Shown: positions 14,665 to 34,570 of the stretch, one piece after another
How the letters are laid out: each line of letters opens with the position of its first letter
Numbering within the stretch: the first letter of the stretch is position 1
From: Deltaproteobacteria bacterium
GTDB taxonomy: Bacteria; Desulfobacterota; Desulfobacteria; Desulfobacterales; JAUVKB01
Direction of reading: 5' to 3'
Length of the DNA stretch: 34,570 nt
NCBI GenBank assembly: GCA_030596405.1
Contig: JAUVKB010000001.1
Coordinates: 1-34,570, forward strand
The notes under the pieces: model-generated
Seen by the model: the letters and a program-made list of their open reading frames with translations, nothing else
The model's database searches: none
What the model was told of the DNA's origin: nothing
Made by a program: the position numbers and the translations under genes

Positions 14665-16957
14665 TTTTACCCTTTCCATTGACCAAAGCCGGGTTTTCCG
14701 AATATTCGATGCGGTGGTGATATATTCCGTTTAATATTTTGTTAAAATTTTTTGCAATATTATGCAGGTCTTTTAATGTCAGTTCACAATCGTCAAGCTG
14801 GCCGTCGGAAAAAATTTTGTTGATTAAATTTTGTACAAGCGCCTGAATTTTTGCCGGCGTTGGAGTGTCAAGCGTTCTTGACGCTGCTTCAACCGAGTCC
14901 GCCAGCATGACAAGACCGGCCTCTTTAGTCTGGGGTTTTGGCCCGGGATACCTGAAGTCGTCGATTTTTACCGCATCTTTTCCTTTTAACTGTTTTGCCT
15001 TCTCATAGAAAAATCTGATGAGGCTTGTTCCGTGGTGTTGCATAATCGCCTCGGTTATGGTCTGGCCCAATTTATTTTTCCTTGCCATTTCAGCCCCGTT
15101 CTTTACGTGTGAAATAAGTATAAGAGCGGACATGGAAGGCGCAAGTTTGTCATGCTTGTTTTTGCCGTTACTCTGGTTTTCAATAAAATATAACGGCTTA
15201 TTGATTTTGCCGATATCGTGATAATAACCGCATACTTTAGCCAGCAAAGGATTTGCGCCTATTTCAGATGCTGCGGCTTCAACCATTGACCCGACAATAA
15301 CAGAATGATTATAGGTTCCCGGAGCCTCTATCATAAGTCTGCGGAGTATCGGTTGATCAAGATTCGCAAGTTCAAGGAGCTTTATATCGGTTGTGTAACC
15401 AAAGGTAATTTCTACAAGTGGCGCGATACCGGATGTTACGATTCCTGCGACAATGCCTCCCAGAAACGCAAAAGACCAGTCCCACAAAAGTTTAACTCCG
15501 GAAAAATTAACCACATAGACATCTATTGATGTCGCAAGTATCATGTTCAGCAATCCGAGCTTCAGGCCCGCCTTGATAAATACTTTTCGTTCCCGGCAAT
15601 TCTGCATCCAGTAGGCGGCCATCGTGCTGTTTATAAGGAAATAGATAAAAACCTCAAACCTGTTCTCAAAAATAATCGCTGTGCAGGCTGCCATTATCAG
15701 GGCAAAAGGAACGGCAAGGTTAATTCCCAGGAAGAGACAGATGGTCATGGCGCTTGAAGCCAATGGAATCCCAAAACCCATTGATGCGGCGGGTATGGAA
15801 AACGGTGTGTTTTGATCCAGTGATTTAAACATGTACGCTGATATTTCGGCAACAAGAAAAAACGCAACAAGGACACTTGCCATAAAAAGGATATTCTTGT
15901 TGAGGTCGCGTGTAATGTTGTTTTGATGCATTATGTGCAGGTTATATGTCATGATAAGAAGACAAAAGATTATCATCGCCGCACCGATGCTGCTTACGGA
16001 TATTTCTTCTTTTGCCGTCTGGACATGTAATGCCTGCAGCTTTAAAAGCTGTACCTGGGTTACCCTTTCCCCTTCCCGCAGGAGCATCTCGCCGGCTTTG
16101 ATTTTGTAAAGAACCGGTTTGATTTCAGAAGAAGCCTTTTTTTTACGTTCTCCGGTTTCGTGTATGTTTAAAGTAATATTGGGCTGAATAAGTCTTTGAG
16201 CAAAATCAACGATCAGATTTAACAACGTATAATTAACATTCTTAAGGTATGGCTGGCCGACAATTCTGACCATGGTTTTGGCCTGGTCAAGGCTGTAGTA
16301 GGCTTTTAAGTTATGAACGATTTTTTCCGTCTTTGTCCCTACATTCCTTAAAATTATCCCTTTATCCGATTCCTTAAGGAGGGCCTCTTTATTTGCGACC
16401 ACACCGTTTTGCAATATATCAGTTAAAAGTCTAATGATAAGACTTGATATGTCATCAGAAAATTTTTCGTCTGCCAGTATTTTATAAGCGCCCTGACTAA
16501 CTGATATTCCGAGTATTTTTTCAAAGCCCTCCTTTTCCCGCAAAATCTGGTTATATGCGGATTGTTGCTTCGATGATGTTTTGTTCTGGTTTTCCGTTAT
16601 AAGTTTGTAATTTTTACGAAGATAGGCAAATGATTCTTTTGTCTGTTTTCTTAATTCCGGCAAAAGAACCAAATTATAATCGTAAACCGTCAAAACTTCA
16701 TCAACCGCCTGCCTGCGATTCCCTTCAGTCGCGTTTTTGTCCTCGATAAAAAAGTCTTTTGGCGCTTTTATGTCTCTTTCAGCAACATCTCCTAAATGGT
16801 AAGGATGTCCGGTGACCACGAGATTAGGATAGAGAAAGATGGTAAAAATTATGGTAACGCCGGCCAAAATAACCCAGTGGATGTAATTGCTGGAGGCGAA
16901 AAAAGTAGCGATAGATTTTTTTGTTTTTTTAACGCTCATTTTATTAATATCAACCAT
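14564..16957 (-). CDS. 7TM-receptor HD-domain phosphohydrolase (PgpH/YqfF family)
   Basis: One N-terminal TM helix, an extracytoplasmic domain, a block of about 7 TM helices, and an HD domain (HSVIVGSM ... YYHDIGK). The gene order HD then ybeY is the classical arrangement. The start is uncertain (ATG 16957 or 16939; the track ORF starts at TTG 16963). Confidence 0.9.
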   Translation of the reverse strand: MVDINKMSVKKTKKSIATFFASSNYIHWVILAGVTIIFTIFLYPNLVVTGHPYHLGDVAERDIKAPKDFFIEDKNATEGNRRQAVDEVLTVYDYNLVLLPELRKQTKESFAYLRKNYKLITENQNKTSSKQQSAYNQILREKEGFEKILGISVSQGAYKILADEKFSDDISSLIIRLLTDILQNGVVANKEALLKESDKGIILRNVGTKTEKIVHNLKAYYSLDQAKTMVRIVGQPYLKNVNYTLLNLIVDFAQRLIQPNITLNIHETGERKKKASSEIKPVLYKIKAGEMLLREGERVTQVQLLKLQALHVQTAKEEISVSSIGAAMIIFCLLIMTYNLHIMHQNNITRDLNKNILFMASVLVAFFLVAEISAYMFKSLDQNTPFSIPAASMGFGIPLASSAMTICLFLGINLAVPFALIMAACTAIIFENRFEVFIYFLINSTMAAYWMQNCRERKVFIKAGLKLGLLNMILATSIDVYVVNFSGVKLLWDWSFAFLGGIVAGIVTSGIAPLVEITFGYTTDIKLLELANLDQPILRRLMIEAPGTYNHSVIVGSMVEAAASEIGANPLLAKVCGYYHDIGKINKPLYFIENQSNGKNKHDKLAPSMSALILISHVKNGAEMARKNKLGQTITEAIMQHHGTSLIRFFYEKAKQLKGKDAVKIDDFRYPGPKPQTKEAGLVMLADSVEAASRTLDTPTPAKIQALVQNLINKIFSDGQLDDCELTLKDLHNIAKNFNKILNGIYHHRIEYSENPALVNGKGKNGSPDKQQAKPIQDIPGKDGKRGSNNFKRLGLS

Positions 16958-17023
16958 TGCCAAGTTGTAGCGTGATTATAGATAAAGTTTTTTATTTATG
17001 TCAACACAAGATAAGACCCGCGC

Positions 17024-17224
17024 CAGGGCAAACGCATTTGGAATTAACCCTTGAGCACTTTAGCGCTGATGTCCAATGCCCGATGCAGCCGGTTCCCAAT
17101 CCCCCAGTGGCCTCGAATCGTCCTGCTTGTTACCTCTGTTTCCAATTATTTCATGCCGTTATAAAAGTTCCCCGCAGCCCCCGTAAAAACCGGTGCTTCC
17201 TGATTACCAAATGCGGTTACCCTG
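17024..17224. repeat. 201-bp intergenic element bounded by ~21-nt inverted termini (possible MITE or structured RNA)
   Basis: The left arm CAGGGCAAACGCATTTGGAATT is at 17024-17045. The reverse complement of 17204-17224 reads CAGGGTAACCGCATTTGGTAAT. The same motif recurs at 25779-25800. No convincing coding potential was seen. Confidence 0.6.
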
Positions 17225-17242
17225 AAAAAGCCTCGTTACTTC

Positions 17243-17270
17243 TTGACAATATAAAAACACTTATTATATT
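17243..17270 (+). promoter_or_regulatory. Sigma-70-type promoter candidate for the FmdB-family gene
   Basis: TTGACA (17243-17248), a 16-nt spacer, then TATATT (17265-17270). It lies about 90 nt upstream of ATG 17362. Confidence 0.5.
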
Positions 17271-17361
17271 TGATTCAGATTTGTGTTACGTCAATAAAAC
17301 AGATTTTATAATTTGGTAATTGAGTAATGCTTGGCACTATCATATAAGGAGTTTTTTTAAT

Positions 17362-17768: not shown

Positions 17769-17857
17769 ATAACATATTTAATTTTGTCGATTAACAGCTT
17801 TTTATCATAATAATGCTTTTAAAATTTGGCTATAAAGAAAAAAGGAGAATTTAGACA

Positions 17858-18145
17858 ATGAAGCTCAGACCATTACAGGATCGAATTTTAGTACAACGTG
17901 TTGAAGAAGAGACAACAACTAAGGGAGGGATTATTATACCGGACTCGGCCAAGGAAAAACCGGCTGAAGGGAAAGTTGTCGCCGTCGGTTCCGGCAAGAT
18001 AGGAGAAGACGGCAAAAGGATTCCTCTTGAAATTAAGACCGGCGACCGAATCCTGTTCGGCAAATATTCGGGTACGGAGGTAAAGATTGAGGGCGAAGAG
18101 CATCTGATCATGCGTGAAGATGACGTTCTTGCTATAATCGAATAA
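17858..18145 (+). CDS. groES: Co-chaperonin GroES
   Basis: [18 protein letters not shown]...[13 protein letters not shown]...GKVVAVG is the canonical Cpn10 sequence. AAGGAG lies upstream. Confidence 0.98.
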
Positions 18146-18168
18146 TAATAATCAAAATGGAGGGATAG

Positions 18169-19821
<1,653 letters not shown>

Positions 19822-20220: not shown

Positions 20221-21132
20221 ATGACTCTGATAAATATTGCACCGAGACTCTATCTTATTTCGCTTGACCAGAATCTGCCCGGATTCATTTCTTTTATTGG
20301 GGCGTGGCTTTATAAAGGGGAAAAAACTTTTTTAGTGGATCCGGGGCCTTCCGCCACCATACCAAACCTTATGAAATCTTTGGCAGAGCTTGAAGTACAA
20401 CACCTTGACGCAATCCTTTTGACACATATCCATATCGATCATGCAGGAGGTATCGGAGATCTTAGTTCCTGTTTTCCCGATACTCCGATAGTCTGCCACA
20501 AGTTAGGCATTAAACATCTGGCGGAACCTTCCCGTTTATGGGAAGGAAGTCTTAAAACCCTGGGCAAGACGGCCGAAGCTTATGGGCCTATCAGTCCTGT
20601 TTCTTCTGATCAGCTTTTTGATGCGGCCAACTTCCAGGATGGTATAATCACACCTGTTCTTACTCCGGGACATGCCGCGCATCATGTAAGCTATATATTG
20701 GAACCTTATCTTTTTGCAGGCGAGACAGGAGGTGTTTTTATAGATATTCCAGGCGGGCGATTTTATCTTAGGCCGGCCACCCCCCCACCGTTTTTTTTAG
20801 ACACGTGTATTTAGTGTATGGATGTGCTGTTAGACAGCAAGCCCGAGAAAATATGCTATGGCCATTTCGGCATGCAGGATAATGCTGTAAAGATGTTGAA
20901 AATGCATAGAGAACAGCTTTTTCTCTGGAAAAATATTATCGATGATGAAATAAAAAATTCCCGCCCGGAAGAATTTGTTGATGCATGTATAGACAGACTT
21001 TTAAAGAATGACCCATTTTTAAAAGGATTTTTCGATATGGGTAAAGACGTTCAGGAAAGAGAGTGGGGATTTTTGAAAAACAGTGTCAAGGGGTATAAAG
21101 GATATTTAAAAACCGTCGCTGACAATCCTTAA
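20221..21132 (+). pseudogene. MBL-fold metallo-hydrolase interrupted by a single in-frame TAG (20812-20814)
   Basis: ORFs 20221-20814 and 20818-21132 are in the same frame and are separated only by TAG-TGT. Motif HIHIDHAGG (HxHxDH) and PGHAAHH lie upstream of the stop. The last metal-ligand context ICYGHFG lies downstream. One ~302-aa protein is therefore required for an intact fold. Confidence 0.65.
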
Positions 21133-21916: not shown

Positions 21917-22570
21917 CTAAAATAACAACAAGAGACCGCAAGCCTCTTGATTCTGCTTGACGGTTCCCCCAAAAAGACCGGCAATATTTTCTAACCTCGA
22001 CCATTTTTCCGATGAAGATATGTTCTGGAAAAATTCGGTTTTGTCTGCAAAATTTCCATCACATGAGAGTTGGACACCAATTTTGTCTTCCGTTTTACTA
22101 AGGTGAATATCTATCCGCCCTCCTTCAGACATCAAATCCAGGCAGCATTCAAAACATGCCAACAATCCCATCTGTAGATGAACCGGATTTGTTTCAACAG
22201 CAATGGCTTGATCCGGGGGGTGAAGCTTTAAAACAACGTTTTTTAACCTGGCAAATCGCTGTGATAAATCGACCAGCACTTCAACTGTTTCATAAAGGTC
22301 GATTTTTGATGTGGTTTCGTCCGTGCTATGGGCGAATTTGTTAAGGCGGGATGTCAATTCCACTCCCCGTTGAATCTGTTCCTTTATGACGGACAGGGCT
22401 TTTTTTATTTTTTCCTCATGAGGGAGAGGCGCCTCTTGCAGCATAAACATCAGATCTTCCATAAGACCGGAAGATTCTTTTATGATCGCCAGAACATTTT
22501 TCATTTCATGGGTAACGCCCGCAGTTATTTTTCCAAAAAATGCGATTTCTTTATAATCTGATTCTTTCAT
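21917..22570 (-). CDS. Soluble histidine-kinase-like protein with H-box but degenerate ATP-binding domain
   Basis: The H-box GVTHEMKNVLAII resembles that of the adjacent kinase (GVAHEINNPMAII). The region where the N, G1 and G2 boxes should lie reads LLACFECCLD / SCDGNF / no GxGLGL. Confidence 0.65.
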   Translation of the reverse strand: MKESDYKEIAFFGKITAGVTHEMKNVLAIIKESSGLMEDLMFMLQEAPLPHEEKIKKALSVIKEQIQRGVELTSRLNKFAHSTDETTSKIDLYETVEVLVDLSQRFARLKNVVLKLHPPDQAIAVETNPVHLQMGLLACFECCLDLMSEGGRIDIHLSKTEDKIGVQLSCDGNFADKTEFFQNISSSEKWSRLENIAGLFGGTVKQNQEACGLLLLF

Positions 22571-22599
22571 GATATTTCCTCAAAACACGCCTTGTTCCA

Positions 22600-22968
22600 T
22601 TATCGGCTATTAATCGCTTCTTGCATTTTCTTGATTAATTCATCGATATTTAACGGTTTCATCAAGTAATCATACGCGCTTTCCAGCATCGTTTCAATTT
22701 CTTGCTCAGTAGAACCATGTCCGGTCAGAAGAATAACCGGAATTTGTGAGTTTATAGCTTTAATCCTCTGAAGAACTTCCAGACCTCCCAGGCCCGGCAT
22801 CATAACATCCAAAACTACTATATCCGGAGAATCATTTTCAATGATTCGCAGCGCTATCTCACCGTTTGTGGCGACCTGAACATTTATTCCTCTCAAATCG
22901 AGCCTTTCCGCCAAAGTCGTGACAAATTCTTCCTCATCATCAACAAGTACAACTTTCCAGTCGGCCAT
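22600..22968 (-). CDS. Single-domain response regulator (CheY-like receiver)
   Basis: VVLVDDE..., phospho-acceptor context IVVLDVMMPGLGG, LLTGHG, and YLMKP. The start abuts the kinase stop (22969), and GGGGGGA lies upstream. Confidence 0.92.
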   Translation of the reverse strand: MADWKVVLVDDEEEFVTTLAERLDLRGINVQVATNGEIALRIIENDSPDIVVLDVMMPGLGGLEVLQRIKAINSQIPVILLTGHGSTEQEIETMLESAYDYLMKPLNIDELIKKMQEAINSR

Positions 22969-24699
22969 TTATCCCCCCTGTTCATTTTTGGGTTTTTTCA
23001 GCAAATAAACTGTAAAGGTCGTGCCCTCTCTTTCCTGGCTCTGCACCTTGAAATCCCCGCCTAGTTTTTTTACAATTCCATAGGTGATAGGAAGCCCCAG
23101 ACCGGTGCCGGTCCCCTTTTTGGTCGTAAAAAAAGGTTCAAATATATGATGGAGAACATCTTCCGACATACCGCATCCATTATCCCTGATAGAGACACCA
23201 ACAGTATCGGCATCGTTATCCCATGTTGTGATAGTAATCTGTCCGCCATCTTCCACAGCGGCAAAAGCATTCGTGAGGATATTAAGGAAAACCTGTTGGA
23301 GTTGCCCCCTGTCTGAAGATATATGGGGCAAATCATCCGCAAGGTTGATGTTTAGATTGATTTTTCGATACAAGGCTTCCCTTTCAAGAAAGCCGATCAC
23401 CTCTTTAATGATTTTATTCAGATCCAACACCTCAAAAAGCACTTCTAAACGGCGTGCAAAACCCAACAGGCGATGGGTAATAGTTTTGCAACGTTCAACT
23501 GATTGAATAATCGATTCCGTCAGCTCAAGCAGCTTCGCTTTTTTTTTGAAATCCGGAGTAAATTCGACTATATCCTTCATTAAGCCGGCTTTTTCATTGA
23601 TTATGGCCATTGGGTTGTTAATTTCATGGGCTACGCCGGCGGCCAGTCTTCCGATGGATGAAAGCTTGTGGCTGTGTTCCAGCTCCCTGAGGGCCGACTC
23701 CCGCTTTTCAACAGCTTCTCGAATCTGTCTGACCAATATACCTGTAAGCTTGATAATTACTAAAATAATCACCACAATGCTGACGATAAAGATAAAGAAC
23801 ATTTTGTTTTTAAGCGTATACCACGACTTTAAAACAACGGAATGTGGTTTGATTGCAACCAGTGTATAATCATACTCCATAAAATGGTTGTAGGCCAAAA
23901 ACACATCAACCCCACGAGGATCTTTTGTTTCTATCACGCTGGTTCCGCTGTGTTTTGTCTGGGGAATTAAAAAGGGGCAATGTTCCAGTATTTTCCCGTA
24001 AAATTTAGAGTTGGTCTGAAAAATGCCTTCCCGGTTTATTAAGAAGGCATCACTTTTTGGGTCAAGTTCCATGGAAGAAATAAGATTGTCAAATCTGTAA
24101 GTATCGATTGTGGCGCGCAGTGTCCAGGCCTTGTCTCTTGCCGATAAATGCTGAGCGGCAACAGCAATGTGGGGAAACTTGCGGTATCCCATAAAAACGT
24201 CACTGACATATTCACCCCTTAACTGGGCCTCCTGAAACCAGCTCTGCTCGGAATAGTTTTTTCCCAAAAGTTCATAAGGGCCGCAATAACTTACCTGTAT
24301 GCCGTGGTCATCAATCACTCCCAAATCGACAAACCCACCGAATTCCTTTTTTAAAACCAGCAAAATATGACTCAGCGTCTTAGTATTCGACAACTCCTCA
24401 AAACGATAAGCAGATGCGATGAATTTTACGGTAGAGAGCCGTTCTTCCAATAAAAGTTCAAAGGAATGCCTTGTCTTGTCCGACATTATACGTAAGGGGT
24501 TGATCGTTTCGTTTTTAAGCTCTGTCTGATATTGATGATAATTAATGGCTGCCATGACAGTAATGGGAACAATAGTCACCACGATCATTAATACAATCAT
24601 ATTTCTGCGAAGTTTATGGCGGCGAATTGGAGAGATATTTTCATCATTGTAATACAATAAGCCTCTGGTTAAAGTGCTTATCCATTTATTAATACCCAT
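22969..24699 (-). CDS. Sensor histidine kinase with periplasmic Cache-type domain
   Basis: Two TM helices flank a ~250-aa Cache-like domain. H-box AAGVAHEINNPMAI, N-box NILTNAFAA, G1 DNGCGM, and G2 GTGLGLPI. Confidence 0.92.
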   Translation of the reverse strand: MGINKWISTLTRGLLYYNDENISPIRRHKLRRNMIVLMIVVTIVPITVMAAINYHQYQTELKNETINPLRIMSDKTRHSFELLLEERLSTVKFIASAYRFEELSNTKTLSHILLVLKKEFGGFVDLGVIDDHGIQVSYCGPYELLGKNYSEQSWFQEAQLRGEYVSDVFMGYRKFPHIAVAAQHLSARDKAWTLRATIDTYRFDNLISSMELDPKSDAFLINREGIFQTNSKFYGKILEHCPFLIPQTKHSGTSVIETKDPRGVDVFLAYNHFMEYDYTLVAIKPHSVVLKSWYTLKNKMFFIFIVSIVVIILVIIKLTGILVRQIREAVEKRESALRELEHSHKLSSIGRLAAGVAHEINNPMAIINEKAGLMKDIVEFTPDFKKKAKLLELTESIIQSVERCKTITHRLLGFARRLEVLFEVLDLNKIIKEVIGFLEREALYRKINLNINLADDLPHISSDRGQLQQVFLNILTNAFAAVEDGGQITITTWDNDADTVGVSIRDNGCGMSEDVLHHIFEPFFTTKKGTGTGLGLPITYGIVKKLGGDFKVQSQEREGTTFTVYLLKKPKNEQGG

Positions 24700-24723
24700 T
24701 ATTACCTCGCAGTGGCAGACTTT

Positions 24724-25533
24724 TTATAGGCAGATTCCATATTGTTTTGTTTTAACAACGGATTCTTTGAGATACTGAAAAACACCGGCCCCTTCTTTAG
24801 AAGCTTTTTCCTTTCCCATGACGACCAGGTTAACAAAATTTATTTTCTCTTTGTTTAAACTGCTGATCTGTTCATCAATGAGCTTTATGGTATTGCTGAA
24901 TGTGCTGTAAACAACAAAGGGACCGAACAAGATTTCTCCGTCCTTTTTTTTGGTTAACGCGCCGATAACATTTTGATCCGGCAGTTTAAAGACTTTTGGC
25001 GGAGAAATATATCCAAGCAGCTCGGCAAAAAGGGCAAGGGATTCTATTACGCCGTCTTTATTCCCTATTTCCAGAGCTGTTGCCGCGTCTTTTTCGATTT
25101 CATCCATGTCAGACTCGTCAAAGGAAAGGTCGAGCATGTCGATACATTCTTTTTGGATAATTTTGACGGTCTCTTCTTTTTTGCTGATAATAACATCAGC
25201 ATCGTTTAATATTTTAATTATATTTCGCACGCTCAGCATTTCTTTGACCGAGGGGCTTTTTCGCAGCCCGATATCTTCCGCCGAGGTGTTGTAAATGGCA
25301 AGATCATTATCGAGCACCAGAATCTTTTCCTTACCGGAATTATCTTTCATAATGTAAAGATCAAGATCCCGCTCCCGCCTAAACATGCAAGAGCGCATTT
25401 CAAGGAGCAACCGCATTGTTTTTTTGTCAACCTTATGGGTGCCGTCAACAGGAGAGATATCGATAGACTTTAACACCTTACTGGCCAACCGGTCTATCGT
25501 AATTTTTTTTAAAAGATTTTTTTTAAACGTCAT
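24724..25533 (-). CDS. Hypothetical cytoplasmic protein (269 aa), first gene of the two-component operon
   Basis: Long ORF with ATG 25533 and AAGGGGA upstream. It ends 24 nt before the kinase start. No TM segment was seen and no motif was recognised. Confidence 0.6.
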   Translation of the reverse strand: MTFKKNLLKKITIDRLASKVLKSIDISPVDGTHKVDKKTMRLLLEMRSCMFRRERDLDLYIMKDNSGKEKILVLDNDLAIYNTSAEDIGLRKSPSVKEMLSVRNIIKILNDADVIISKKEETVKIIQKECIDMLDLSFDESDMDEIEKDAATALEIGNKDGVIESLALFAELLGYISPPKVFKLPDQNVIGALTKKKDGEILFGPFVVYSTFSNTIKLIDEQISSLNKEKINFVNLVVMGKEKASKEGAGVFQYLKESVVKTKQYGICL

Positions 25534-25778
25534 GATACGTTTATCCCCTTTGCTCGACCCAACATCCGGCGCTTAAAACAGATAGTTTTTATTAAATTTA
25601 CCATCCGGATAAAACATACAAACCATCCTTTGCGCAACCGTTTGAGTTTTATAAATTTTCTATTCCTAAAAGAGGACTTATGGCAAAGATATATAAAGCC
25701 TCTATAGTTACGCGATTTTCAATGGGTGGAAGTTTATGATAAATTTGTTTATATGTCAAATATGTCGGTATGCCGCTG

Positions 25779-25800
25779 CAGGGTAACCGCATTTGGAATT
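25779..25800. repeat. Third copy of the CAGGGTAACCGCATTTGGAATT motif
   Basis: An 18-nt stretch matches exactly the reverse complement of 17207-17224, and 20 of 22 positions match 17024-17045. A degenerate inverted partner may lie at 25911-25931, whose reverse complement is AGGGTCACGAGCGATTTGCGG. Confidence 0.7.
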
Positions 25801-26121
25801 TATGGTCTAAAAGCCATAACCTGTTAAAATACTGTGGGATTTTATCAATGGAAGGTAAGGATGTCACAAACAGAAATTCCAACAATCGCTAAATACCGGC
25901 CTCAAGATGACCGCAAATCGCTCGTGACCCTATAAGGAATCATCAGGTGCACAGTATGTCACTTGGGGCCGGGTACTTACGACATGACTGTTCTTAAATA
26001 TTCCCATATAGATTGATTTTGATTTTTTTTCAAATAACATAAATCACGACCGCTTTTGCGTATAAAGCCACCCGCTTCTGATGGCAGGAGGAACAAAAAT
26101 GCCTTTATTTACAAAAAAAAC

Positions 26122-27495
26122 TTACCCGTAAGTTTTTAGTTTTCTTCTAAGGGTGTTTATTCCTATATCCAAAAGTCTGGCTGTTTGAGATTTATTTCTT
26201 CCTGTTTGATCATATGTCTTGAGAATATACGATTTTTCAACGTCAGCCAGAGAAACTATACTATTTATTTCTTTTTGATACTGTTTGTCCGGTATAGTTT
26301 TTTTTGTTTTTTTAATCCGCATTTGCCCTGGAAGAAAATTTGCGGTTATAATTTTTCCTTGAGCCAGATTTACGGCAGACTGAATAATTGCCTTTAGTTC
26401 CCTGATATTCCCGGGATAATCGTAATCCATAAGTAAAGACATGGCTTGCTCTTCAACAAAGCAACTACCGGAATTACCGGAAAACTCCTTTAAAAATTTA
26501 TTTATCAACAACGGTATGTCATTTTTTCTCTCCCGGAGGGGCGGAAGGTGGAGCCACCCCCCTCTGAGACGGTAATATAGATCCTTGCGAAACATCTTTT
26601 TGTCCATCAATATATCAAGGTCTTCATTCGTGGCTGCAATAAAGCGGATATCAACTTTTTGCTGCGCGCTGTTCCCTAACTTGATATATTCTCCGGACTG
26701 GAGGACCCGAAGCAATTTTCCTTGAAGTTCGGGTGACAGGTTGCCGATTTCATCCAAAAAGACTGTTCCCTGGTTTGTGTATTCAAGGTGGCCGGAACGA
26801 TTTTTGTCCGCACCTGTAAAAGCACCCTTTGTATGGCCGAAAAACTCGGCATCAAAAAGATTGCCGGCTATAGAAGCCATGTTGATCGGAGTAAACGGAA
26901 ATTTTGATCTTGCGCTTACAGTGTGAATAGCCCTGGCCAAAAGTTCCTTGCCGGTGCCGCTTTCTCCTGTAATTAAAACAGGGACATCACTTAGAGCGTG
27001 CAGTTCTGTTTCCTTCAATATCTTAAGGATCTTATGCGATCTTGTTATAATAGGTTTAAATGCTTTTACATTTATTAATTTCGGCAGGGTCTTCTTTTTT
27101 TCAATATCAAGAATATCGAGCAGCCGTTTCCTTTCCATAGACCGGTTAATTGCCGAAAGCAGGTCTTCTTTAGAAACAGGCTTGACAAGATAATCATATG
27201 CTCCTTTTTTTAAGCATTCCACCGCGGTCCTGGCTTCATTCACAGCGGTTACCATTATACACTCGGTGTTGGGACTGGTGTTTTTTATTATCTCAAGGAG
27301 TTTGATCCCATCCATACCGGGCATTGTCATATCGATCAGGGCAATATCAAAAATTTCGTCTTGCTCAAAAATTAAAGCAGCCTTTACAGGATCATCCTCA
27401 AGTACGATGTTTTTATATCCTGTTTCGGTCAATTTTATTTTTAATATTTCAAGAAAATCGAGGTCGTCGTCAATAATTATAATATTACCGGTCAT
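26122..27495 (-). CDS. Sigma-54-dependent response regulator (NtrC family: receiver, AAA+, Fis-type HTH)
   Basis: Receiver domain with IALIDMTMPGMDG. AAA+ domain with GESGTGKELLARAIH and the sigma-54 contact loop GAFTGA. C-terminal HTH QTARLLDIGINTLRRKLKTYG. Confidence 0.95.
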   Translation of the reverse strand: MTGNIIIIDDDLDFLEILKIKLTETGYKNIVLEDDPVKAALIFEQDEIFDIALIDMTMPGMDGIKLLEIIKNTSPNTECIMVTAVNEARTAVECLKKGAYDYLVKPVSKEDLLSAINRSMERKRLLDILDIEKKKTLPKLINVKAFKPIITRSHKILKILKETELHALSDVPVLITGESGTGKELLARAIHTVSARSKFPFTPINMASIAGNLFDAEFFGHTKGAFTGADKNRSGHLEYTNQGTVFLDEIGNLSPELQGKLLRVLQSGEYIKLGNSAQQKVDIRFIAATNEDLDILMDKKMFRKDLYYRLRGGWLHLPPLRERKNDIPLLINKFLKEFSGNSGSCFVEEQAMSLLMDYDYPGNIRELKAIIQSAVNLAQGKIITANFLPGQMRIKKTKKTIPDKQYQKEINSIVSLADVEKSYILKTYDQTGRNKSQTARLLDIGINTLRRKLKTYG

Positions 27496-27922: not shown

Positions 27923-28798
27923 ATGGATTTAAAAAACAAATTTAACGCAGGGGAATTTGTCATTCTGGCGGAGATTGAGCCTCCCAAGGGTGTGGATATA
28001 TCCACGATGGTAACCAACGCCACAATGGTAAAAGGAAAAGCGGATGCATTGCTGGTGCCGGAAATGAGCAACGCGGTTATGCGGATGAGCGCACTCGGCG
28101 GCGCTATGATCCTCCAGGGCAAAGTGATGGAAACGGTGATGCAGGTTAACTGCCGGGACAGGAATCGATTGGCTTTGCAGGCTGATTTGCTGGCAGCATC
28201 CGCATGCGGCATAACCGGTATCATGGCTGTAACAGGAGAAGATCCGAGTTTCGGAGACCACCAGCAGGCCAAGGCGGTATATGACATTGACCTGCCGGAG
28301 CTGCTTGATTCCATTCATAAGCTTCAACAAGGTCGGGATATGGCTGGAATTGATCTTTGCGGTTCTCCACAATTTCTGGTTGGTTCTACGGTTAATCCTG
28401 GGCTCAAGGGGATGGCGCTTGAGCTTGAACTTACAGAAATGAAAAAAAAGATTGATGCCGGGGTTGAATTTTTAATAATGCCGCCTCTGTTTGATCTTGA
28501 TTCCATTGAGCCGTTTTTAAAGATGGTTGATCACCGGAAGACGCATATCATTCCCACGGTATTACTGCTTAAATCAGTGGGGATGGCCCGATATATTGAT
28601 CGTAATATGGATCATGTGCATGTCTCGGCACAGCTTATAAAAAGATTGCAAAAAGCGCCGGACAAAGTGCGCGAATGCATAAAAATCGCATCTGAAATGG
28701 TTTCTGTTTTAAAACGGGAAGGGTTCAGCGGAGTCCTTCTTTCCACCATAGGCTGGGAAGACAGGCTCGCTGAAATTATTGATGGGAGCAAGGGATAA
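27923..28798 (+). CDS. Methylenetetrahydrofolate reductase family protein (MetF-like paralogue 1)
   Basis: 291 aa. The N-terminus [14 protein letters not shown] is an acetogen-type MetF opening, and the rest has a TIM-barrel-like pattern ([12 protein letters not shown]..., [21 protein letters not shown]). AAGGAA lies 8 nt before the ATG. Confidence 0.8.
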
Positions 28799-28838
28799 GC
28801 CGCAAACTATATTTATGCAACACAAAAACGGGGTACTG

Positions 28839-31800
28839 ATGAGCCAAAACCAGGAAAAAAAATACATGGAAAAAGATAAAGATTTTGTCGGCTCGGTTAT
28901 GGTAGTGGGAGGAGGAATTGCAGGTATGCAGTCGGCTCTCGATCTTGCCAGTTCCGGTTATTACGTCTATCTTTTAGAAAAATCGTCTGCCATTGGCGGG
29001 ATGATGTCCCAGTTGGACAAAACCTTTCCGACCAATGATTGCGCCATGTGAGTGATTTCGCCCAAACTGGTCGAGGTCGGCCGGCACCTGAATATAGAGC
29101 TTTTAACCGATACGGAAATTCTTAACCTTAAAGGCGATCCGGGACGTTTTACCGCCCTGGTAAGTCAAAAACCGCGTTTTGTAGATCTTTCCAAATGCAC
29201 AAGTTGCGGAGAATGTGTCAAGGTTTGTCCGGTTTCACTTCCAGACGGATACGATCAGGGGCTTTCCGAACGAAAAGCAGTCTACAAACAATACCCCCAG
29301 GCAATTCCTGGTGCTTTTGCCATCACTAAAAGGTCAACCGCACCGTGCAAGGCCACCTGCCCTGCCCATGTGAGTATCCAGGGCTACATAGCCTTGATCA
29401 ATGACGGTCGCTATGAAGAGGCTCTGAAACTTTTTAAGGAAGAACACCCGTTTCCCGGGGTTTGCGGCAGGGTCTGCCATCATCCCTGCGAAGATGTTTG
29501 TACCCGCAATGATTTGGATCAGCCTATTGCAATTCAACATCTCCACAGATTTCTGGCGGATTATGATTTTACCAGCGAAGATCCGTATGTACCGGAAACA
29601 GGGGAAATACGGGAGGAAAAAATTGCCATTATAGGCACTGGCCCGGCAGGTCTGACAACCGCATATTTTCTGGCGAGAAAGGGTTACCTCGTTACGATTT
29701 TCGAAAAACTTCCGGTTACAGGCGGCATGATGAGGGTTGGCATCCCTGAATATCGTCTTCCCGAAAATATCTTGAATGCTGAAATTTCAACAATCGAAAA
29801 AATGGGAGTTTCGATAAAAACCGGCGTTGAATTCGGCAGGGATATTACGATGAAAAGCCTTAAGCAAGACGGATTTAAGGCTCTGTTTTTGGCTATCGGG
29901 CTTCACGGCAGCCGTAAACTGGGAGTAGCTGGTGAAGATCTGGAAAATATTCTACCAGGAGTTGCTTTTTTAAGGGATGTATCTTTGGGTAAAAATGTAA
30001 AGATAGGGAAAAAGGTAGTTGTTGTAGGCGGTGGAAATGTGGCTATTGACGTATCCCTTACAGCGAAACGTCTTGGCGTTGACAAGGTGACTATGGTCTG
30101 CCTTGAATCACGGGAGGAAATGCCTGCCTGGGATTATGAGGTTGAAGAGGCTATAGAGGAAAATATTGAAATACTCAACTGTTTTGGCCCAAAGTGTTTT
30201 AACGGAAAAGATGAAAAAATCACATCTGTTGATTTTAAGCAATGCATATCTGTTTTTGATGAAAACCGGCGTTTTAATCCGCAGTATGATGAAAACATAG
30301 TTCAAACATTAAAAGCCGACACCTTGATTGTCGCCATAGGCCAGATGGGAGAATTCGACTTTGCCGAAGATGAAGATATTGCTCTATCTCCCCAAGGCGG
30401 ACTTGAAGCGGATCCTTTAACTTTTCAGACACCTATTTCCTGGATCTTTGCCGGCGGTGATGCGGTTTACGGACCCAAATCGGTTGTGGACGCGGTTGCG
30501 TGCGGAAAGGAAGTGGCAGAAAGTATAGACCGATATCTTAACAACCAGGATTTAAAAAAGGACAGGATAAAGGAGTGGCCCTATGAAAAGCCGGATATAA
30601 CCGGTGAGTGCGGCAAGGAAAGAAATCTGTTGCATTATCTTCCTGTTGAACAGCGGGAAGGAAATTTCATGGAAATTGCCTCGGGGTATAATGAAAAAAA
30701 TGCCTTAAAGGAAGCGGACAGGTGTTTAAATTGCGGTATTTGCAGCGAATGTTATCAATGTGTGGATGCGTGCCTGGCCGAAGCAATTGATCACAGCCAA
30801 AAGCTTGTAGAAAAAGAAATCAAAGTCGGTTCGCTTATTCTTTGCCCCGGCAGTGAGCCGTTTGACCCTACAATATTCCAGGAATTTTATCTTTACAAGA
30901 AAAACCCCAATGTGCTTACAAGCCTGGAATTTGAACGGATTTTAAGCGCATCCGGCCCCACCATGGGACATCTTGTCAAGATGTCGGACAAAACCGAACC
31001 TAAAAAAATAGCCTGGCTCCAGTGTGTCGGTTCCAGGGATACAAACCGGTGCGGCAACGGTTACTGTTCTTCTGTTTGCTGCATGTATGCGGTGAAAGAA
31101 GCGATGATCGCAAAAGAGCATGCAGCCGGTGGCCTCGATTGTGCTATTTTTAATATGGATATGCGTACATTCGGCAAAGATTATGAAAAATATTATTTAA
31201 GAGCTAAAAATGATGCCGGGGTCCGTTTTGTCAAAGCGCGGATACATACCATAGACGAAATTAAAGAGACCGGCGAATTGAACCTGCAATACGTGGATGA
31301 GGCTGGAAAAATTATTCAGGAGCGTTTCGACATGGTGGTTCTTTCCGTGGGTCTTGCTATCTCGGAGTCTACCGCCGAACTGGCCGGACGTCTTGAGGTG
31401 GAGCTCGATAAATACAAATTTGCAGTTTCAGAACCGTTTATGCCGGTTCAAACATCACGCCCCGGTGTTTATGCCTGCGGAGTATTTCAGGGCCCCAAAG
31501 ACATTCCGACTTCGGTGATTGAAGCAAGCGCTGCGGCCGGAGCTGTTGGATCTCTTTTAGCGGATGTACGCGATACCCTTACTAAAAGCGTAGAAATTCC
31601 CGAAGAAATTGATATCGCCGGGCAAGAACCGAGGATAGGAGTTTTTGTGTGTAAATGCGGGATTAATATTGCCGGGGTTGTGGATGTGGATGCAGTGGAA
31701 GAATACGCAAAAACCCTGCCCAACGTGGAGTATGTCGGTCAAAACCTTTTTACATGTTCCCAGGATACCCAGGAGCAGATGAAAGAGGTTATTATCGAAC

Positions 31801-33296
31801 AGAAGCTTAACCGGATTGTGGTTGCGTCATGCACTCCCAAGACCCATGAGGGTATTTTTATGGATACCCTGCAGGCTTGCGGGCTCAATAAATACCTTTT
31901 TGAAATGGCCAATATCAGAAACCAGGATTCATGGATTCATTCAGATATGCCTGAAAAGGCCACTGAAAAAGCTAAAAAACTTGTCAAGATGGCGGTTGCA
32001 CGCGTTGCCACACTCTATCCGCTCCATGAAAAAATAATTCCGGTTACCCGGCGTGCCTTGATTATCGGCGGCGGTGTGGCAGGCATGAATGCTGCTCTTG
32101 CTCTTGGAGACCAGGGGTTTGAAGTTGTTCTGGTGGAAAAAGAGACCAAACTTGGAGGTCTTGCAAACCGGCTGACCACTACCATTGAAGGAGCCGATAT
32201 CGGAGAATACCTGGATGATCTGACCCATAAAATTACTAACCATCCGAAAATCCAGGTGCTGGTTCAGTCTCTTATCGTCGGATTTGAAGGGTTCAAGGGT
32301 AATTTTACCACAGAAGTGCTGGTGGGGCCGGGAATGTATGAAAGAAAGATCGATCATGGGGTTATTATTTTGGCAACAGGCGCAAATGAATATCAGCCCA
32401 ATGAATTTTTATACGGCCACGACCGCCGCGTTATGACACAGATAGAACTGTCGGAGCATCTGGAAAATAATGACACAAAAAGTCTTGACCAGGTTGTCAT
32501 GATTCAGTGCGTTGGCTCTCGAAATGATGATAACCCGAACTGCTCGAGAATTTGCTGCCAGAGCGCGGTTAAAAATGCGATCCATATAAAGGAGGATAAC
32601 CCTGAAACAAATGTTTATATTTTGTACCGCGACATCAGGATGTACGGTCTTTTGGAAGAATACTACACCATGGCCAGACGTTTGGGAGTTATCTTTTTTA
32701 GATACACGCTGGATGATCCGCCGCAAGTGAAGTCTTCTGAGGACGGGGTTGAAGTGACTTTCAAAGATCATGTCCTTGGAAAACGGCTTGTTGTTTCCGC
32801 AGATCTTCTGGCACTCAGTGTAGGAATGCGCGCCGAAGATACAGAAGAACTTGCTTCCATAATAAAACTTGCCCGTAATCCGGAAGGGCATTTTATTGAA
32901 GCTCACGTAAAGCTGAGACCTGTGGATATGTCTACGGAAGGTATTTTTGTATGCGGAACCGCACACAGCCCCTTGTTGATTTCCGAATCGATATCCCAGG
33001 CATTTGCCGCCGCATCAAGGGCATCCACATTTTTATCTCAACCGCACCTTACCCTGTCGGCTGTAACGGCCAAGGTTGAAGAAGAAAAGTGCGCAGCCTG
33101 TCTTGTTTGCGTCAGATCTTGTCCGTACGGCGTGCCTGTAATAAATGACAAAGGTGTTAGTGAAATAGACCAGGCCCTGTGCCACGGGTGCGGCGTTTGT
33201 GCATCTGAATGTCCGGCCAAGGCTATTGAATTAAACTGGTACGAGGATGATCAAATATTGTGCGAGGTTGAGGCCTTGCTTGAGGGGGTTTTATGA
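28839..33296 (+). CDS. hdrA: Giant HdrA-family flavoprotein (HdrL-type) with selenocysteine at UGA 29049-29051, an inserted GltD/NfnB-like NAD(P)H module and a second HdrA-like module
   Basis: The frame is open from 28779 to 33296 except for TGA at 29049. The start is ATG 28839 (alternatives 28815 and 28866). Motifs in order: (1) [13 protein letters not shown]; (2) [19 protein letters not shown]; (3) GltD-like CPAH...[20 protein letters not shown] and [12 protein letters not shown]; (4) [13 protein letters not shown]; (5) CVGSRD...[10 protein letters not shown]; (6) [12 protein letters not shown]; (7) [14 protein letters not shown]; (8) CVGSRN...CSRICCQSA; (9) terminal 2x[4Fe-4S] [12 protein letters not shown] / [12 protein letters not shown]. 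Confidence 0.85.
29067..29084 (+). other. Candidate bacterial SECIS hairpin for the hdrA UGA
   Basis: CUGGUCG-AGGU-CGGCCGG forms a 7-bp stem with two G.U pairs and a GGU-containing tetraloop. It starts 15 nt after the UGA. Confidence 0.5.
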
Positions 33297-33721
33297 GTAG
33301 TTTTGATCCTGTAATTATAGCGTTTTGCTGCAATTTCTGAGGTTACACTGCCGCGGACCTGGCAGGTTCCATGAGATTGAAATACCCGGCAAGCATCAAA
33401 ATTGTCAGGATTCCATGCACTGGAAAGGTTGATATTCTCCATATTCTGCGCGCCTTTGAAATGGGGGCGGACGGGGTCTATGCGGTTGGATGCATGGAAG
33501 GTGATTGTCATTACGACAGCGGTAATTTCTGGGCACGCAAACGAGTGGAGCAGGCCCGGAAAATTTTAGATACAATCGGTATCGGAGGTGAAAGGGTGCA
33601 GATGTATAATCTGTCCGCCGGAGAGGGGCCCCTCTTTGCAGAATATGCGGTGGAAATGCATGAAAAAATATTAAAATTGGGGCCTAACCCGTTAAAACTC
33701 GCAAAAAAGAAGGCTGCCTGA
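33293..33721 (+). CDS. mvhD: MvhD-like (methyl-viologen-reducing hydrogenase delta subunit family) [2Fe-2S] protein with selenocysteine at UGA 33338-33340
   Basis: ATG at 33293 overlaps the hdrA stop (ATGA) and has GAGGGGG upstream. Translation gives [47 protein letters not shown]. This restores the conserved MvhD N-terminus (CCNxC...AG.DLAG). The track ORF from ATG 33371 lacks it. Confidence 0.82.
33345..33369 (+). other. Candidate SECIS hairpin for the mvhD UGA
   Basis: Two alternative folds are possible. One is GGACCU-GGC-AGGUUC (33355-33369, 6 bp, starting 14 nt after the UGA). The other is CUGCC-GCGGACCU-GGCAG (33348-33365), extendable by A45-U67 and C46-G66 with A47 bulged. Confidence 0.4.
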
Positions 33722-33796: not shown

Positions 33797-34465
33797 ATGA
33801 TTGTTGCTGATAAAAAACCTATTGAAGAGATTATTGGGGAGATTAAAGATTATACCACCATCCTTATCCTGGGCTGCAACGAGTGTGTCACGGTCTGCGA
33901 AGCCGGAGGTAAAAAAGAGGTGGGAATTCTGGCGTCAGCCTTGAGGATGTATTTTCTAAACCAGGGGAAAGATGTGACAATAGACGAAAGGACCCTGGAG
34001 CGGCAATGCGACCACGAATATCTGGAAGAGATCCGTGATGTGGCTGACCAATATGACGCCATAGTATCGCTTGCATGCGGTGTGGGAGTGCAATTTACAG
34101 CGGAAAAATACCATGCCGTACCGGTTATACCCGGAGTCAATACATGTTTCTTGGGCGCCACGGAAACAAGAGGCCTCTGGACTGAAAGATGTCAGGCCTG
34201 CGGCGAGTGTATTCTGGCGCGGACAGGCGGAATTTGTCCGGTTTCCAGATGTGCCAAAAGGATTTTAAACGGTCCCTGCGGCGGAGCGAGCAACGGCAAA
34301 TGCGAAATCAATAAGGAGCTTGACTGTGCCTGGCAGTTGATTATCGACAGATTAAAGGCACTGGGGAGGCTCGATGATTATGAAAATATAAGTCCCATTA
34401 AAGACTGGTCAACCGATCGGGCCGGCGGGCCTCGAAGAGTTGTGAGGGAGGACGTGCAGCTATGA
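33797..34465 (+). CDS. metV: Methylenetetrahydrofolate reductase C-terminal-domain protein (MetV-type Cys-rich subunit)
   Basis: Cys clusters are GCNECVTVCEAGG and CQACGECILARTGGICPVSRCAKRILNGPCGG..NGKCE, the MTHFR_C signature. AAAGGGG lies upstream of the ATG. Confidence 0.82.
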   Translation: MIVADKKPIEEIIGEIKDYTTILILGCNECVTVCEAGGKKEVGILASALRMYFLNQGKDVTIDERTLERQCDHEYLEEIRDVADQYDAIVSLACGVGVQFTAEKYHAVPVIPGVNTCFLGATETRGLWTERCQACGECILARTGGICPVSRCAKRILNGPCGGASNGKCEINKELDCAWQLIIDRLKALGRLDDYENISPIKDWSTDRAGGPRRVVREDVQL

Positions 34466-34570
34466 ATGTAAAGACACCAAGCAGACTGGAAAAAGTTCTT
34501 TCCGCTGGCCTACTTGCCGTAACATCGGAATGTGGCCCGCCTCGCGGTAGTGATCCTGAAGTTATCACTA
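34462..34570 (+). CDS. metF: Methylenetetrahydrofolate reductase (MetF paralogue 2), 5' fragment truncated by the window end
   Basis: The ATG overlaps the metV stop (ATGA), and GAGGGAGGA lies upstream. MNVKTPSRLEKVLSAGLLAVTSECGPPRGSDPEV matches the acetogen-type MetF N-terminus (E-x-x-PP-[KR]-G). Confidence 0.72.
   Translation, partial: MNVKTPSRLEKVLSAGLLAVTSECGPPRGSDPEVIT

Follow-up and report, generated by a model that had tools for sequence, protein, structure and literature searches.

The locus examined here raises the question of where a small gene of the mvhD type begins, and whether an in-frame UGA codon near its 5' end is read as selenocysteine (Sec). The gene lies near the end of a stretch of 34,570 nt from a Deltaproteobacteria bacterium (contig JAUVKB010000001.1, positions 1 to 34,570, forward strand), referred to below as the window. 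Gene calling placed its start at ATG 33371, giving an open reading frame (ORF) of 116 codons, whereas an earlier note, made from the sequence alone, had proposed a start 78 nt upstream and a UGA decoded as Sec within the added segment. Our analysis indicates that positions 33293-33721 very probably encode a full-length, 142-residue MvhD-type [2Fe-2S] subunit, in which the UGA at codon 16 would be decoded as Sec through a selenocysteine insertion sequence (SECIS) located in the coding sequence (CDS) at 33355-33369. The 116-residue ORF is an artefact of taking this UGA as a stop.

An extended reading frame restores the N-terminal cluster motif

The frame opened by ATG 33293 was found, as described in the earlier note, to run through TGA 33338-33340 and the peptide GYTAADLAGS into MRLKYP, the beginning of the called ORF, and it remained a single frame throughout. 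Across the UGA, the product reads FCCNF-U-GYTAADLAGSMR. The start codon shares bases with the stop of the upstream 1414-codon ORF (TGA 33294-33296), which is the ATGA overlap that had been reported for the hdrA-like gene. Moreover, the nearest in-frame stop upstream of ATG 33293 is only 4 codons away, so that this ATG is the only start able to serve the extension. The purine-rich run GAGGGGG, which resembles a Shine-Dalgarno (SD) sequence, is indeed present ahead of it; its spacing had been given as 5-6 nt, a value that fits the GAGG core only, as the distance from the last G is 4 nt. The coordinates of these features are collected in Table 1.

For the profile search, the UGA was read as Cys. 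The 142-residue product matched the Pfam family FlpD (PF02662, 'methyl-viologen-reducing hydrogenase, delta subunit') over the complete profile (positions 1-123 of 123), with 159.6 bits against a cutoff of 22.3. The called 116-residue ORF matched profile positions 21-123 only, with 125 bits, positions 1-20 being lost. The proposed start 78 nt upstream is thus supported by a gain of 34.6 bits and by the extension of the match to the first position of the profile.

Six solved MvhD/VhuD chains aligned to residues 1 to ~136 of the extended protein (E = 2e-42 to 3e-35). In two MvhD chains, 5odc_D and 9sw2_D, the UGA aligned with Cys16, the last Cys of the CCNWC motif. In the best match, 9sfi_K (E = 2e-42), an archaeal VhuD-type chain described as 'F420-non-reducing hydrogenase subunit delta', it aligned with 'X', a non-standard residue that we take to be Sec, within the motif VCYQ-X-GYGAADLAG. 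In positional orthologues, the same position is occupied by Cys, encoded by TGC or TGT. The claim that the UGA replaces the third Cys of CCxxC was thereby supported. Residues C12, C13, U16, C42, C67 and C72 paired with C12, C13, C16, C42, C67 and C72 of 5odc_D, and the Cys pattern of the family was found in full: CCxxC close to the N-terminus, one Cys within RxPC[TS]G, and GCxxGxCH. The association of the FlpD family with an HdrA-type flavoprotein was found as well, the mvhD start overlapping the stop of an HdrL-type gene, an adjacency that is kept in relatives.

Table 1. Features of the mvhD locus and of its surroundings in the window
Feature	Position	Strand	Remarks
Full mvhD-like (FlpD family) CDS	33293-33721	+	142 codons including predicted Sec16; stop TGA 33719-33721
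Start codon ATG of the mvhD-like gene	33293-33295	+	overlaps the stop of the hdrL-type gene (ATGA)
SD-like GAGGGGG	33282-33288	+	4 nt from last G to ATG 33293; read from the sequence
In-frame UGA, predicted Sec codon	33338-33340	+	U16 in C13-x-x-U16 motif; TGA in 81/81 sequences; Cys in orthologues
Putative bacterial SECIS-type hairpin of mvhD	33355-33369	+	6-bp stem GGACCU/AGGUUC, GGC loop; 14 nt after UGA
Internal Met27 codon	33371-33373	+	called as start of the 116-aa ORF 33371-33721 (ORF list)
HdrL-type gene (HdrA fused to GltD/NfnB-like NAD(P)H module)	28839-33296	+	~1485 aa; start uncertain (28779-28866); predicted Sec codon 29049-29051
Putative SECIS-type hairpin of hdrL	29067-29084	+	CUGGUC-GAGGUC-GGCCGG; 15 nt after UGA; -10.2 kcal/mol
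MetV-like gene (DUF5981, 'methylene-tetrahydrofolate reductase C-terminal')	33797-34465	+	Pfam PF12225, 1.1e-37
MTHFR-family gene	27923-28798	+	directly upstream of hdrL; Pfam PF02219, 1.3e-24
Sigma-54-dependent response regulator	26122-27495	-	regulatory cluster 21917-27495
ORF without Pfam match	24724-25533	-	regulatory cluster 21917-27495
Cache/HisKA/HATPase sensor kinase	22969-24699	-	regulatory cluster 21917-27495
Receiver-only protein	22600-22968	-	regulatory cluster 21917-27495
HisKA fragment	21917-22570	-	regulatory cluster 21917-27495

Conservation of the UGA codon and of the segment upstream of it

A scan of one genome per species yielded 80 related loci, mostly from metagenome-assembled genomes (MAGs) of Desulfobacterales, with 62-97% protein identity; Desulfobacula and Desulfococcus are represented among them. 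TGA was present at the same codon in all 80, each from the genome of a different species (81 of 81 sequences including the window), and the surrounding peptide was kept as FCC[NSDHKQG][FYS]-TGA-[GA]Y[TSN]AADLAGSMRL. Before the TGA, the third codon base varied while the amino acid was kept at Pro-10, Ile-8, Phe-5, Cys-4 and Cys-3; because of this synonymous variation, the stretch upstream of the TGA is taken to be translated and not to be a remnant. The median pairwise nucleotide identity was only 73% over the stretch compared, which begins 11 codons before and ends 100 codons after the UGA. The gene thus exhibits what is expected of a bacterial selenoprotein gene, namely an in-frame UGA at a Cys position of homologues, with coding sequence conserved on both sides. 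A start codon was located 15-17 codons ahead of the TGA in 72 of the 81 sequences, and a crude motif scan detected a purine-rich, SD-like run ahead of the ATG selected as start in 74 of the 81; in the other seven, the ATG selected was a more distant one in the same frame.

These observations bear directly on the possibility that translation truly ends at the UGA. The 15 codons before it would then be a defunct remnant or a separate micro-ORF, and the working protein would be the 116 residues from ATG 33371. Gene callers and public databases annotate the gene in this way: the closest database proteins (76-97% identity) are 114-118 residues long and align to no more than 76-82% of the extended query, and a weak SD-like AGG is found 4 nt upstream of ATG 33371. 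However, the short product would be without the first 20 FlpD positions and thereby without the entire CCxxC/U motif, the upstream peptide is conserved with synonymous changes in 80 species, unlike a remnant, and the AGG forms part of the invariant hairpin described below. Moreover, most Cys-type orthologues of full length carry the equivalent of Met27 as a conserved residue inside the protein (GSMRL). We consider a genuine stop at this codon highly improbable.

The earlier note would have given up the upstream start if the proteins of close relatives began at the equivalent of ATG 33371 and lacked the cluster motif. Their database entries do begin there (114-118 residues), yet in every case the DNA carries the upstream FCCxxU segment, so that these short starts represent the same annotation artefact. 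One example of a database gene cut in this way is the entry P0093 of Desulfonema magnum. The more distant database proteins (60-76% identity) were full length, with Cys at the UGA position.

Thirteen of the related loci (L007, 2130-2519; L022, 1816-2193; and 11 more) hold in addition a second, Cys-type mvhD paralogue (FLCNWCAYAGADLAG, 39-46% identical). This copy, which has no counterpart in the window, is found ~3.5-4 kb upstream, where it immediately precedes a shorter HdrA gene; the HdrA architecture of these loci is thus a different one.

A hairpin under RNA-level constraint follows the UGA codon

Downstream of the UGA, we found a block of 17 nt, GCGGACCUGGCAGGUUC (33353-33369, corresponding to +16 to +32 from the U of UGA), which is identical in the window and in 79 of the 80 relatives. 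It encodes Ala-Asp-Leu-Ala-Gly-Ser, with degenerate codons throughout. At codons +5 to +9 (GCG GAC CUG GCA GGU), minor, i.e. non-majority, codons accounted for 2 of the 405 cases in Sec-type genes (0.5%), versus 1127 of 2749 (41%) for 34 further conserved degenerate positions in these genes. This invariance is not accounted for by codon bias: 12 distinct Cys-type mvhD paralogues found in the same loci favour GCC GAT CTG GCC GGT, and none of the five codons is fixed among them. All five codons also varied in eight distinct Cys-type positional orthologues, located in the same HdrA/L-MvhD-DUF5981-MTHFR operon, some of which have Met in place of Leu.

RNAalifold, applied to 36 diverse sequences, gave a single consensus stem, the 6-bp hairpin whose loop is GGC, and showed no conserved pairing of the UGA region in a lower stem. 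The stem extends from +18 to +32, with the loop GGC at +24 to +26 and its GG at +24/+25, and the folding energy is -5.7 kcal/mol. The earlier note had placed hairpin candidates within 33345-33369, and the conserved one does lie in that interval. Two other kinds of structure were set aside: a CUGCC...GGCAG stem, preferred by the minimum-energy fold of the window, is not conserved by the relatives, and the extended stems seen in some individual folds (e.g. L016, L023) are lineage-specific.

The single relative departing from the block, L047, differs at two bases, having GCG GGG for GCA GGU. Its hairpin shifts to GGACC/GGUCC, with a G-C pair for a G-U pair and a larger loop; nowhere else in the set is a structure-preserving change hinted at.

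With its suppressed synonymous change, the hairpin fits a bacterial SECIS. The bSECISearch program of Zhang and Gladyshev (2005) reportedly expects an apical loop ~16-37 nt from the UGA and a G in the loop, and both the apical-loop distance and the loop G of the mvhD hairpin agree with these criteria. The SECIS of Escherichia coli fdhF is likewise a short coding-sequence hairpin soon after the UGA, with GG in its apical loop; its spacer is 11 nt and its GG lies at +22/+23, compared with 14 nt and +24/+25 in the window. The fdhF minihelix gave -4.2 kcal/mol, a stability comparable to that of the window hairpin, although the two differ in sequence and no bulged U is evident in the latter. Archaeal Sec decoding uses a SECIS in the 3' untranslated region, whereas the window element lies in the CDS right after the UGA.

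Evidence against Sec decoding and alternative readings of the UGA

Several results weigh against Sec decoding. In the 36 sequences analysed with RNAalifold, no compensatory base changes were seen in the hairpin. As the element is invariant, support for it comes from suppressed synonymous change and from relaxation in the Cys forms, and not from covariation. The single-sequence fold of 33338-33400 was no more stable than shuffled sequences (z = +0.59). Rfam gave no match at gathering thresholds in the whole window, and a permissive Rfam scan of 33250-33450 returned only a meaningless match to a long non-coding RNA (E = 4). Regarding the decoding machinery, ARAGORN found 0 tRNAs, and thus no tRNA-Sec, in the 34.6-kb window, and Pfam scans of 29 further window ORFs, among which housekeeping and regulatory genes were recognized, found no SelA, SelB or SelD.

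A different account of the same codon is that a standard tRNA (Trp, Cys or Gly) reads the UGA, either through a reassigned code or by leaky near-cognate decoding, without Sec. In its favour, three predicted proteins derived from ENA (P0001, P0004 and P0008) show Trp at the Sec position (FCCNFWGYTAADLAG). These Trp calls are most simply artefacts, evidently produced by a gene caller translating TGA as Trp. UGA is the ordinary terminator of 6 of the 31 genes in the window, mvhD and hdrL among them, so that the genetic code is standard. Furthermore, every Cys-type homologue has a redox Cys at this position, 9sfi_K has X, interpreted as Sec, and the RNA-constrained hairpin stands at SECIS distance, its constraint relaxing where the codon is TGC or TGT. 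Decoding by a standard tRNA is, on this evidence, extremely unlikely. That the true codon is TGC or TGT, each one base away from TGA, and was altered by an error of sequencing or assembly in a window that appears MAG-derived (the closest locus, L001, with 97% amino-acid identity, is from contig JAERRQ010000014 of a Desulfobacterales MAG, isolate G11), has a practically negligible probability, given that the same TGA is found in 80 independent assemblies of different species genomes and co-occurs with the constrained hairpin.

The upstream hdrL gene and switching between Sec and Cys

The gene directly upstream of mvhD encodes an HdrL-type protein with the Pfam domains Pyr_redox_2, Fer4_20, FAD_oxidored and Fer4, the NAD(P)H module corresponding to Fer4_20 and Pyr_redox_2. 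An in-frame TGA in the motif TNDCAM-U-VISPKLV splits the gene into two called ORFs (28779-29051 and 29052-33296). This TGA was kept in 58 related loci, and the block AAACTGGTCGAGGTCGGCCGGCA was identical in 56 of the 58, while it varied in five close Cys-type HdrL homologues (L075-L078 and L080). The earlier note had likened the spacing of the mvhD hairpin to that of the upstream gene, at 14-15 nt, and the two distances in Table 1 agree with this. With hdrL, the operon holds a second gene that has a conserved TGA and a hairpin of its own, which is indirect support for a working Sec system in this genome.

The Sec/Cys states of HdrL and MvhD change independently among relatives. The five loci L075-L078 and L080 have Cys in HdrL and Sec in MvhD. 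Locus L081 (4757-5188) has Sec in HdrL and TGC in MvhD, with the 17-nt block intact; this block is apparently a fossil SECIS, left after a recent Sec-to-Cys conversion.

Gene neighbourhood

The gene order common to the relatives is HdrA/L - MvhD - DUF5981 - MTHFR - response regulator. In the window, the MetV-like gene (DUF5981) follows mvhD, and the ORF from 34462 (34462-34570) then runs off the end; it had no Pfam match itself and is MetF in relatives. Two MTHFR-type genes thus appear to flank the hdrL-mvhD-metV block of the window, the relatives showing only the downstream MetF, beside a response-regulator gene. Neither an hdrB nor an hdrC (CCG-domain) gene was seen among the window ORFs scanned, and none separates the hdrL, mvhD, metV and MTHFR genes.

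Just upstream of the metF-hdrL operon, the divergent minus-strand cluster at 21917-27495 contains regulatory genes and may control it. Three window ORFs of 100-240 codons (16957-17319, 17851-18567 and 20818-21132) had no Pfam match. The second of these, on the minus strand, is probably not a gene, as it overlaps the start of a GroEL-type gene (18175-19821) on the other strand.

Proposed mechanism

We infer Sec insertion, SelB binding and a chemical role of Sec16 from the features described above. By analogy with E. coli fdhF, the hairpin at 33355-33369 would recruit SelB with Sec-tRNA(Sec) to a ribosome paused at the UGA. The resulting MvhD would act as the adaptor of an HdrL-MvhD-MetV-MetF module, in which it would hand over electrons one at a time and so link the HdrA-type flavin subunit with its partners. 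The literature describes MvhD as holding a [2Fe-2S] cluster and passing single electrons to or from the bifurcating flavin adenine dinucleotide (FAD) of HdrA.

Sec16 would stand for the last Cys of C-C-x-x-C, beside the [2Fe-2S] cluster, a placement of the Sec-equivalent residue taken from one 2026 preprint (bioRxiv 10.64898/2026.04.10.717634), and could form a redox-active disulfide or selenenylsulfide such as has been proposed from homologues. A similar proposal was made for the Sec of HdrA in the structure of a Methanococcus complex (Nature 2026), where the role is called unresolved. The suggestion in the earlier note that two adjacent Sec genes form a redox-tuned module is in line with current speculation in structural papers.

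The 17-nt block might also double as a SECIS and an internal initiation site, an AGG being located 4 nt before the fully conserved AUG 33371. If this were true, selenium scarcity would cause the UGA to terminate translation and a 116-residue MvhD without the CCxxU motif to be made, and selenium supply would switch the HdrL-MvhD-MetVF module between two forms. We consider such a dual role very unlikely; Met27 as an ordinary internal residue is the simpler reading, since most Cys-type orthologues have Met at this position too.

Comparison with known systems

A Sec-containing MvhD beside a Sec-containing HdrA/HdrL has already been known since 2009. In the genome paper of Desulfobacterium autotrophicum HRM2 (Strittmatter et al. 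2009; PMC2702500), Sec is reported in mvhD1, 2, 3 and 5 and in hdrL1 and hdrL3, every hdrA/hdrL has an mvhD next after it, and the 'HdrL' type is defined. A split, Sec-containing mvhD was described in Desulfococcus multivorans (2016), where BamE is also listed as a Sec-encoding gene (PMC5109826). These systems resemble the window in belonging to the same order of bacteria, in having a small FlpD/MvhD directly downstream of a large Sec fusion of the HdrA-glutamate-synthase type ('HdrL'), and in having a gene call split in two by the in-frame UGA. The likeness to the HRM2 mvhD paralogues is one of description and not of aligned genes. In the window, hdrL-mvhD adjoins metV/metF, a link that was not found in the keyword-searched parts of PMC2702500.

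The statement in the earlier note that MvhD/VhuD proteins are known selenoproteins agrees with a 2026 review (PMC13188914), which tabulates MvhD/VhuD (PF02662) as a CxxU selenoprotein family with two Sec residues entered, and in which co-located selenoprotein genes of the MvhD/VhuD group are described in Deltaproteobacteria. The archaeal VhuD chain 9sfi_K shares with the window protein its fold family, an X at the aligned CxxU-type position near the N-terminus, and the function of a [2Fe-2S] adaptor feeding the bifurcating FAD of HdrA. Unlike the window protein, which keeps Cys there, it has a second X at the Cys67 equivalent, and this fits the two-Sec entry for the family in the review. Its partner is a [NiFeSe] hydrogenase, whereas that of the window protein is predicted to be the HdrL/MetVF module.

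In Geobacter metallireducens, the class II benzoyl-CoA reductase contains BamF, a bacterial homologue of MvhD whose N-terminal Sec19 lies beside a [2Fe-2S] cluster; BamF pairs with the HdrA-like BamE, and a selenenylsulfide has been proposed to take part in the one- to two-electron transition (bioRxiv 10.64898/2026.04.10.717634). Judged by its position in the motif, and not by an alignment, Sec19 would be the equivalent of U16. In contrast to the 142-residue MvhD of the window, BamF is more than 100 residues longer and contains two Rossmann domains and a winged helix.

With the HdrABC-MvhD-MetVF complex that serves Moorella thermoacetica as methylene-tetrahydrofolate reductase (Mock et al. 2014, cited through PMC5736913 and PMC6085437), the window shares an HdrA-type flavoprotein, MvhD, MetV (DUF5981) and MetF/MTHFR. 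It differs in that no hdrB or hdrC was seen, in that HdrA is replaced by a much larger GltD-like NAD(P)H fusion, and in its two predicted Sec subunits. Of the co-located set hdrA, hdrB, hdrC, mvhD, metV and metF that characterizes the Moorella type, the window thus holds only an hdrA-like gene, mvhD, metV and MTHFR, and the locus is better called a related HdrL-MvhD-MetVF arrangement than a member of that type.

Implications for annotation and for the family

The finding adds nothing new in kind to the biology of these proteins, and its practical value lies in annotation repair. The correction extends to dozens of public 'hydrogenase iron-sulfur subunit' entries of 114-118 residues that are without the N-terminal cluster motif. 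The block GCGGACCUGGCAGGUUC after the mvhD UGA and AAACUGGUCGAGGUCGGCCGGCA after the hdrL UGA can serve as search signatures for locating such genes in Desulfobacterales metagenomes and correcting their calls. Finally, the relatives provide a natural comparison between Sec and Cys forms, which could help to explain the presence of Sec beside the [2Fe-2S] cluster of MvhD and the flavin of HdrA.

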